A stretch of 64,000 nucleotides of DNA. Source: Escherichia coli (lineage in GTDB: Bacteria; Pseudomonadota; Gammaproteobacteria; Enterobacterales; Enterobacteriaceae). The position numbers and the translations under genes are program-made. The stretch lies in NCBI RefSeq assembly GCF_013315695.1, contig NZ_CP054353.1. The stretch is one strand, 5' to 3'. Below are positions 5,999-7,026 of this stretch, piece by piece (the stretch's first letter is position 1; each line of letters begins with the position of its first letter). The notes beneath the pieces were generated by a model. The model did no database searches and was not told the origin of the DNA. It saw only the letters and a list, made by a program, of their open reading frames with translations.

Positions 5999-6087
5999 TT
6001 CTTTTTCAAATAATGAAACGCCGCGTGGATGCCATTTATCGCACAAGATAGAGTGCATTTATCGCGCGGCGCATCAACTGGTATGGC

Positions 6088-7026
6088 GTGCTGGGGATGA
6101 GTATTCCCGTGCGTACTATGCAGCAATTTTTAAGAAACGCCATCGATAAAAACCTCGATGGTGAGTATCAGCTCTATGACAGTAAGCTGAGATTTTTGAC
6201 CTCTTCAAATCCTGACCATCCAACAGGGAATATTTTTGATCCTCGTGAACTGGCCTTGCTGGCGCAGGCAATGGAACATGACACGCGGGGCGGCATTCGT
6301 ATGGACAGTCGCTATGTTAGCTGGGAACGTCTGGACCATTTCGACGGTGTGCTGGTGCGCGTCCATACGCTAAGCGAAGGCGTGCGCGGCGATTTCGGCA
6401 GTATCAGCATTGCATTAACCCTGCTGTGGGCGCTCTTTACCAGCATGTTACTCCTCTCCTGGTATGTGATTCGCCGGATGGTCAGCAACATGTATGTTCT
6501 GCAAAGCTCGTTGCAGTGGCAGGCGTGGCACGACACCTTAACGCGTTTATATAACCGTGGCGCATTGTTCGAAAAAGCCTGTCCGCTCGCTAAATTGTGT
6601 CACACGCACCAACATCCTTTTTCTGTCATTCAGGTCGATCTTGACCATTTTAAAGCGATTAATGACCGCTTTGGTCATCAGGCGGGCGACCGTGTTCTTT
6701 CTCATGCTGCCGGATTAATTAGCAGTTCCTTGCGTGCGCAGGACATTGCCGGGCGGGTCGGTGGTGAGGAGTTTTGTGTGATTCTGCCAGGCGCGAATCT
6801 GACGCAGGCTGCGGAGGTCGCAGAACGTATTCGCCTGAAGTTAAATGAAAAAGAGATGCTGATCGCCAAGAGTACAACGATACGCATTAGTGCCTCGCTG
6901 GGGGTAAGCAGCAGCGAGGAAACCGGTGATTATGATTTTGAACAACTCCAGTCATTGGCCGACCGTCGGCTTTACCTCGCAAAACAGGCCGGGCGCAATC
7001 GGGTATTCGCGAGCGATAACGCTTAA
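6088..7026 (+). pseudogene. dgcQ: Diguanylate cyclase DgcQ (YedQ), 5'-truncated: transmembrane helix plus GGDEF domain only
   Basis: 312-aa ORF with RVGGEEF active-site motif; full-length K-12 DgcQ is about 564 aa; in-frame stop at 6049-6051 just upstream and prophage DNA beyond it. Confidence 0.7.

Follow-up and report, generated by a model that had tools for sequence, protein, structure and literature searches.

The window, a stretch of 64,000 nucleotides from one contig of an Escherichia coli genome (NZ_CP054353.1), opens inside a prophage and passes, at position 6077, into the 3' part of dgcQ, the gene for the CHASE7-GGDEF diguanylate cyclase DgcQ (YedQ). Features on either side of this junction are listed in Table 1. 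With yedP in its normal place, the host DNA beside the junction is seen to be intact. On the other side, the phage DNA that had been reported upstream of dgcQ in an earlier note on this sequence was confirmed by the presence of tail and baseplate genes and a gene for a Gin-like invertase, and the dgcQ fragment does lie downstream of the invertase gene and in the same orientation.

Table 1. Features at the junction of prophage and dgcQ. Positions are those of the window; positions beginning with L001 are those of genome AF3.
Feature	Position	Strand	Description
Right-hand 6.1 kb of prophage	1-6076	+	Baseplate and tail-fibre genes, invertible segment and invertase gene (RefSeq annotation)
Invertible tail-fibre segment	3752-5362		229-nt inverted repeats at 3752-3980 and 5134-5362, 90% complementary
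Gin/Pin-family serine DNA invertase	5426-5998	+	190 aa; "pin" of the earlier note; PHROG 125 "DNA invertase", E = 3.4e-94
Prophage right end	5999-6076	+	Two copies of CATTTATCGC; ends in ...GCGCATCA; holds TAG (6049-6051) in frame with dgcQ'
Target-site duplication, right copy (ACTGGT)	6077-6082	+	Left copy at L001:9058-9063, outside the window
dgcQ 3' fragment	6077-7026	+	Two bases of codon 249, codons 250-564 and stop; pseudogene in sister genomes (RefSeq)
Longest ORF in dgcQ fragment	6088-7026	+	312 aa; GTG is dgcQ codon 253; first ATG (6097) is codon 256
yedP	7023-7838	-	Usual convergent neighbour of dgcQ, sharing its last 4 bp; coordinates converted from the AF3 annotation

The coding content of the dgcQ fragment was compared with that of the intact gene. 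In full-length DgcQ, Pfam places the CHASE7 domain at residues 41-227 and the GGDEF domain at 398-557, and hydropathy analysis gives hydrophobic segments at about residues 20-49 and 355-380. Translation of the fragment from 6079 yields a sequence with 100% identity to DgcQ residues 250-564 of strain STEC299, in which the protein is intact (564 aa). The break at codon 250/251 therefore divides the protein into helix 1 and CHASE7 on one side and the periplasmic tail, helix 2 and GGDEF on the other, with CHASE7 lying wholly across the break from the fragment. The arrangement that defines DgcQ, with helix 1, periplasmic CHASE7, helix 2 and GGDEF in a single polypeptide, is not found in the window ORF, which starts at codon 253. 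Consistent with this, the DgcQ equivalog model NF011955 (NCBIfam) scored 625 bits against a cutoff of 408, with the fragment covering only model positions 254-563 of 564. By contrast with the divided protein, the GGDEF domain itself is complete (ORF residues 146-305, PF00990 model positions 1-161 of 161, E = 3.6e-47; Pfam). The RVGGEEF motif is present in the fragment translation together with an RxxD sequence (RAQD) 5 residues ahead of GGEEF, such that the fragment has the full domain, the GG(D/E)EF active-site motif and the optional RxxD inhibitory site expected of a GGDEF diguanylate cyclase. A single hydrophobic segment is kept, which corresponds to membrane helix 2 (full-length residues about 355-380 by hydropathy). 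The ORF with its GTG start, membrane helix and intact RVGGEEF motif is thus as the earlier note had described it. The accompanying statement that only the membrane anchor and the GGDEF domain had been kept is correct for both elements but incomplete, because ~104 periplasmic residues (253 to about 356) are also retained ahead of the helix.

To locate the breakpoint, window positions 5300-7100 were used as a megablast query against 5,426 complete E. coli genomes. A match to dgcQ was obtained in 5,366 of these, and, among the matches listed, similarity to intact dgcQ starts at query base 778, which is window position 6077. The alignment to full-length dgcQ that had been proposed as a check accordingly puts the junction at 6076/6077. 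Matches that span the junction were found in only 4 of the 5,426 genomes, AF3 (NZ_OZ547117), MSB1_4I (NZ_LR898874), NZ_OZ546925 and NZ_OZ546911, each with 100% identity. A 400-bp probe for the left junction found the same four genomes and no others, and the left and right junctions are 37,490-37,491 bp apart in all four. In each case, the first 250 codons of dgcQ (the 5' 750 bp, encoding helix 1 and the whole of CHASE7) are found at the opposite end of the prophage, and this 5' part is present in single copy.

The annotated map of AF3 shows the complete prophage between two pieces of dgcQ. The 5' piece carries the label "missing C-terminus" (L001:8313-9062), and beyond it yodC, yedI, yedA, vsr and dcm are all intact. 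The label on the 3' piece reads "missing N-terminus", and yedP and yodD come next. At the prophage end that adjoins the 5' piece, similarity to dgcQ stops at L001:9063, and the overlap with the 3' piece is the hexamer ACTGGT. The arrangement in MSB1_4I is as in AF3, with yodC, yedI and the start of yedA seen within the stretch examined, and in both genomes the two halves of dgcQ are incomplete pseudogenes according to PGAP.

The window is closely related to these two genomes. Positions 1-6076 are collinear with AF3 (L001:40479-46554) and MSB1_4I at 99.5-99.9% identity, a flipped tail-fibre segment excepted, and over about 50 kb downstream the window and AF3 are 99.97% identical. A junction of fliR', IS1 and yedK is common to the window, AF3 and MSB1_4I only, among the 5,426 genomes. 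The window is neither of these two assemblies, since its tail-fibre segment has the other orientation and its motA holds an IS4-like element that is missing from AF3. As far as can be judged, the window appears to belong to the AF3/MSB1_4I lineage, and its own left junction is predicted from the four genomes that have an identical right junction. The absence of substitutions in the dgcQ fragment relative to many intact alleles implies that the insertion is recent.

These comparisons bear on the proposal in the earlier note that the N-terminal sensor region had been replaced by prophage DNA, in which case the arrival of the phage would have removed the 5' half of dgcQ along with yodC, yedI, yedA, vsr and dcm. 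None of these five genes is found within the window, as had been stated, and the left end of the prophage is outside it. However, the first base of the window corresponds to L001:40479, a point 31.4 kb into the prophage, and the genes are absent from the window for this reason; as a claim of loss, the statement does not hold, given that all five are intact in AF3. Replacement is also contradicted by retention of the 5' 750 bp at the other prophage end in 4 of 4 genomes with an identical junction, by neighbour genes that read as intact in two of the four (AF3 and, as far as seen, MSB1_4I), by the perfect 6-bp duplication that flanks the prophage, and by the near-identity of the window to two of the junction genomes, with the rare IS1 junction in common. 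We therefore regard a replacement or deletion as very improbable. The replacement reading and the supposed loss of yodC to dcm are artefacts of the window edge, and the lesson for method is that a gene truncated at a prophage border near the edge of a window should be treated as a split gene until its other end has been seen.

It is scarcely credible that dgcQ is naturally short in this lineage, or that an intact paralogue elsewhere compensates for it, and no evidence for a naturally short dgcQ or a compensating paralogue was found. Intact orthologues encode a protein of 564 aa and do not differ from the fragment over codons 250-564, and dgcQ is matched in 5,366 of 5,426 genomes, with the junction in only 4. 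Neither did a full-length copy come to light elsewhere, since none of the four junction genomes has more than a single copy of the 5' part of dgcQ. The core of the original observation, that dgcQ is broken up by prophage DNA and that intact DgcQ is impossible from this locus, thus stands.

The sequences at the two prophage junctions were compared with the intact allele. At the left junction (read in AF3), host sequence ...AACT-ACTGGT is followed by phage TGATCAGACATGAGATAAATG..., and at the right junction phage ...CATTTATCGCGCGGCGCATCA is followed by host ACTGGT-ATGGCG.... Given that the intact dgcQ allele (...AACTACTGGTATGG...) has ACTGGT once and that it is present here at both junctions, 6 bp were duplicated and no host base was lost. 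The right end of the prophage has CATTTATCGC at 6033-6042 and 6056-6065, 23 bp apart, and the left end has matching inverted GAGATAAAT repeats. A 9-10-nt repeat thus occurs twice at each end, with 22-23 bp from copy to copy and with opposite orientation at the two ends, and the termini are 5'-TG...CA-3'. The CATTTATCGC copies are probably transposase-binding repeats.

In other E. coli strains, close relatives of this prophage split further housekeeping or secretion genes, namely gudD (L003), gspF (L005) and ptsP (L004). The 45-nt prophage ends are the same in the gudD and gspF insertions, where they adjoin unrelated host DNA, and these insertions are flanked by 6-bp duplications of ACATGG and TCGGGT, respectively; the ptsP insertion was read at its left end only. 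A 5-bp duplication in the style of Mu (ACTGG) had been expected at first, but was dropped because gudD and gspF show 6 bp, with prophage ends TGATC...CATCA. The duplication length for BcepMu or B3-type phages was not stated in the literature searched, and the value of 6 bp rests on the three insertions read. Left-end BLAST matches in other genomes extended a few bases outside the phage, which might have indicated a different end, but the junctions show that these bases are target DNA. The target sites resemble each other: ACTGGT, ACATGG, TCGGGT and the left flank at ptsP (GCTGGC) are all G-rich in their 3' half. This hints at a target preference of the prophage family.

The prophage is 37,491 bp in length. 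It encodes a DDE-type transposase (PHROG 310, E = 7e-147), a transposition ATPase (PHROG 296 DNA transposition protein, E = 5e-93), Mor and Gam, and its early region is on the strand opposite to the late genes. Over 98% of its length, the transposase shares 68% identity with that of BcepMu; identity is 57% with those of Pseudomonas B3-type phages and 99.3% with that of Escherichia phage PhiKM, which also matches 81% of the late region at 98.4% identity. A search of a phage collection with the transposase gave 69 matches, of which the only Escherichia records were PhiKM and Phi06_2974 B. The element has the features of a transposable (Mu-like) phage, both in encoding its own DDE transposase and transposition ATPase and in its unrelated host sites, short target duplications and conserved TG...CA ends. 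It falls outside a strict definition of phage Mu (MuA-type transposase and 5-bp duplication), given that the duplications are of 6 bp and the transposase groups with those of BcepMu and B3. On these grounds, the element is classed as a BcepMu-type transposable prophage.

The invertase next to the right end was matched to the 193-residue DNA-invertase chains of PDB entries 4m6f and 3uj3 (E = 1.4e-92 and 6.8e-92, respectively), both of which we take to be phage Mu Gin. As in the Gin/Pin/Hin/Cin systems, a small serine recombinase is found here beside an invertible segment with inverted repeats and alternative tail-fibre ends. The orientation of the segment in the window is opposite to that in AF3 and MSB1_4I, with window 3755-5362 aligning in reverse to L001:45837-44230, and both orientations thus occur among near-identical genomes. 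Given that the segment is flipped relative to such close relatives, the Gin-like invertase is active now or has been so recently.

The tail-fibre ORF occupies 2431-4221, and minus-strand ORFs at 4228-4842 and 4842-5354 lie in or near the segment. In the window orientation the fibre is 596 aa long, with no assembly-chaperone gene downstream, and in the flipped orientation a 611-aa fibre is followed by a 204-aa assembly protein. The fibre ORF contains about six tandem 168-nt (56-aa) repeats at 2665-3585 (HTHPWSQITGVPAASLTAKGTVQLSS...AATPKAVKAAYDLAAGKAPVS). Fibre lengths of 596, 611 and 643 aa were observed in related prophages, and these differences may reflect variation in repeat copy number.

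Expression of the 3' fragment was assessed from the signals around it. Scans of 5300-7200 revealed no sigma-70-like promoter and no terminator-like site on the + strand, both weak negatives, and the latter covers the interval between the invertase gene and dgcQ'. Only 78 bp separate the invertase gene from the right end of the prophage. In the absence of a + strand terminator, read-through RNA from the invertase gene is plausible, though its translation is unfavoured. No Shine-Dalgarno-like sequence was found ahead of GTG 6088 or ATG 6097. Anti-Shine-Dalgarno pairing energies were -2.8 kcal/mol for GTG 6088, -4.3 kcal/mol (at zero spacing) for ATG 6097 and -2.2 kcal/mol for ATG 6118, in comparison with -7.9 kcal/mol for the invertase gene and -6.8 kcal/mol for the native dgcQ start. 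The in-frame TAG ahead of the ORF, another observation of the earlier note, was confirmed by sequence, and given that the invertase gene is also in a different frame, no fusion of invertase and DgcQ would be formed. With the promoter, start codon and ribosome-binding site gone, the 3' piece is most likely a pseudogene with little or no translation. The function of DgcQ is thus most likely lost, leaving no signal-regulated diguanylate cyclase.

An alternative in which the fragment yields a sensor-less cyclase was also considered. Here, read-through from the invertase gene or the late tail operon, with a start at GTG 6088 or ATG 6097, would give a protein of 309-312 aa with one helix and an active GGDEF domain, free of control by CHASE7. 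In its favour, the reading frame is open and runs in the direction of the invertase gene, no + strand terminator-like site intervenes, the GGDEF domain is complete with intact GGEEF and RxxD, and leaky initiation at either codon is conceivable. Against this, a fusion is blocked by the stop and by the frame, pairing with the ribosome at both codons is weak relative to real starts and no promoter-like site was found in 5300-7200. Furthermore, hydropathy implies that the N-terminal tail of 104 residues would have to cross the membrane unaided by helix 1 or a signal peptide if the GGDEF domain is to lie on the cytoplasmic side. GGDEF enzymes work as dimers that are mostly joined through N-terminal modules, which would also count against an isolated domain. 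The production of such a cyclase is considered unlikely. The narrower proposal, that low-level translation from GTG 6088 or ATG 6097 on prophage transcripts would supply a membrane-tethered GGDEF domain free of CHASE7, is given only a slim chance; were it true, c-di-GMP synthesis by the host would be tied to prophage transcription and not to a periplasmic signal.

The 5' half of dgcQ, outside the window, forms an open 263-codon ORF (L001:8313-9104) that ends 13 codons into phage DNA. Behind the native start and promoter, it encodes helix 1, a complete CHASE7 domain and 13 phage-encoded residues, and could give rise to an orphan sensor domain in the periplasm, anchored in the membrane.

Taken together, we consider it highly probable that a BcepMu-type prophage transposed into dgcQ, splitting the gene and leaving its 3' piece as a pseudogene. 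In the proposed sequence of events, the Mu-like prophage (37,491 bp) would have inserted at codons 249-251, with duplication of the 6-bp target ACTGGT and no loss of host DNA. The gene would then lie in two pieces about 37.5 kb apart, with the 5' piece beyond the left edge of the window. For a simple insertion, the sequence ahead of the left end TGATCAGACATGAGATAAATG should be ...AATAACTACTGGT and dgcQ codons 1-250, with yodC, yedI, yedA, vsr and dcm beyond these. The 5' piece would keep the native promoter, helix 1 and CHASE7, and the 3' piece the rest of the periplasmic region, helix 2 and GGDEF. Lacking a promoter, start codon and ribosome-binding site, the 3' piece would hardly be translated, and DgcQ would be lost as a regulated cyclase. 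Direct evidence covers the junctions, the duplication, the phage type and the undisturbed flanks of the related genomes; silence of the 3' piece and loss of function are predicted. Mu prophages excise imprecisely, and if the same applies to the present prophage, as we infer, the knockout would be effectively permanent and reversion rare. The event thus appears to be a clean transpositional insertion, that is, an ordinary insertional knockout with no replacement.

Other lesions were observed in the flagellar and chemotaxis genes of the window. At about 9665-10720, an IS1 lies between a fliR stub (90 bp of the 3' end, about 9665-9754) and yedK (from 10717), with IS1 ORFs at 9769-10466. The region of fliE to fliQ and yedL to yedN, normally between fliR and yedK, is missing at this junction, and given the loss of fliE-fliQ a non-flagellated strain is predicted. 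The IS4-like element at 43808-45245, inside motA (a gene that starts at about 43541), is 1,414 bp long with a 442-aa transposase on the minus strand, and is flanked by a 12-bp target duplication, CGGCAGATGGGG. Its absence from AF3 implies a later, separate motility hit in the strain of the window. In addition, flhB (54559-55707) is interrupted by a TAG near codon 353, and of tap (51134-51285) a remnant of about 150 bp is left; both are flagged as pseudogenes in AF3 too. Together, the fli deletion, the motA element, flhB and tap look like stepwise decay of the flagellar/chemotaxis regulon.

In K-12, DgcQ is an active cyclase in growing cells that feeds the global c-di-GMP pool, and the pool with this input blocks motility when PdeH is absent (PMC8669469). 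K-12 DgcQ also provides minor back-up activation of the exopolysaccharide synthase NfrB (PMC8669469), and the protein has been discussed together with cellulose production (PMC5635171) and is named as a cellulose regulator in the PGAP product name. Given the several lesions already present in the flagellar system, the motility output of DgcQ would be moot, and motility-related outputs of c-di-GMP were probably already irrelevant in this lineage. Loss of DgcQ could slightly shift biofilm-matrix or phage N4-related phenotypes, because the K-12 protein contributes to the c-di-GMP pool (PMC8669469) and is linked to cellulose regulation. Otherwise, the allele has little significance beyond strain annotation, in that functional DgcQ is most likely missing from this strain and its relatives (4 of 5,426 complete E. 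coli genomes). A literature search for a published prophage in dgcQ found nothing relevant, and the Salmonella YedQ paper contains no experiment with a truncated or sensor-less YedQ. Public RefSeq records already carry annotation of both gene halves and of the prophage.

In comparison with phage Mu, the present element shares residence within a host gene at a non-specific site, a short target duplication and 5'-TG...CA-3' termini, together with a DDE transposase and ATPase helper, the late activator Mor, Gam, and a Gin-type invertase with an invertible tail-fibre segment beside the right end. It differs in its target duplications, which are 6 bp in three independent insertions, whereas that of phage Mu is 5 bp. 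Unlike Mu, its early region is on the opposite strand to its late genes, and there is no com/mom in the 78 bp between the invertase gene and the right end. The 69 transposase matches also include no Escherichia phage except PhiKM and Phi06_2974 B, although the collection searched presumably contains phage Mu. The closer likeness is to BcepMu, to enterobacterial BcepMu-like prophages and to PhiKM, on the basis of the transposase (68% for BcepMu and 99.3% for PhiKM) and of a late region near that of PhiKM. Ends of the form TG...CA have been reported as characteristic of relatives of BcepMu (PMC2628397). From BcepMu itself, the prophage differs in its host and insertion site. As regards DgcQ, the fragment matches codons 250-564 of intact alleles exactly, but the sensor and catalytic halves are here 37.5 kb apart and no full-length protein is encoded. 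In summary, insertional inactivation of a host gene by a transposable phage is defining Mu-like behaviour, and there is nothing unexpected about the present allele.
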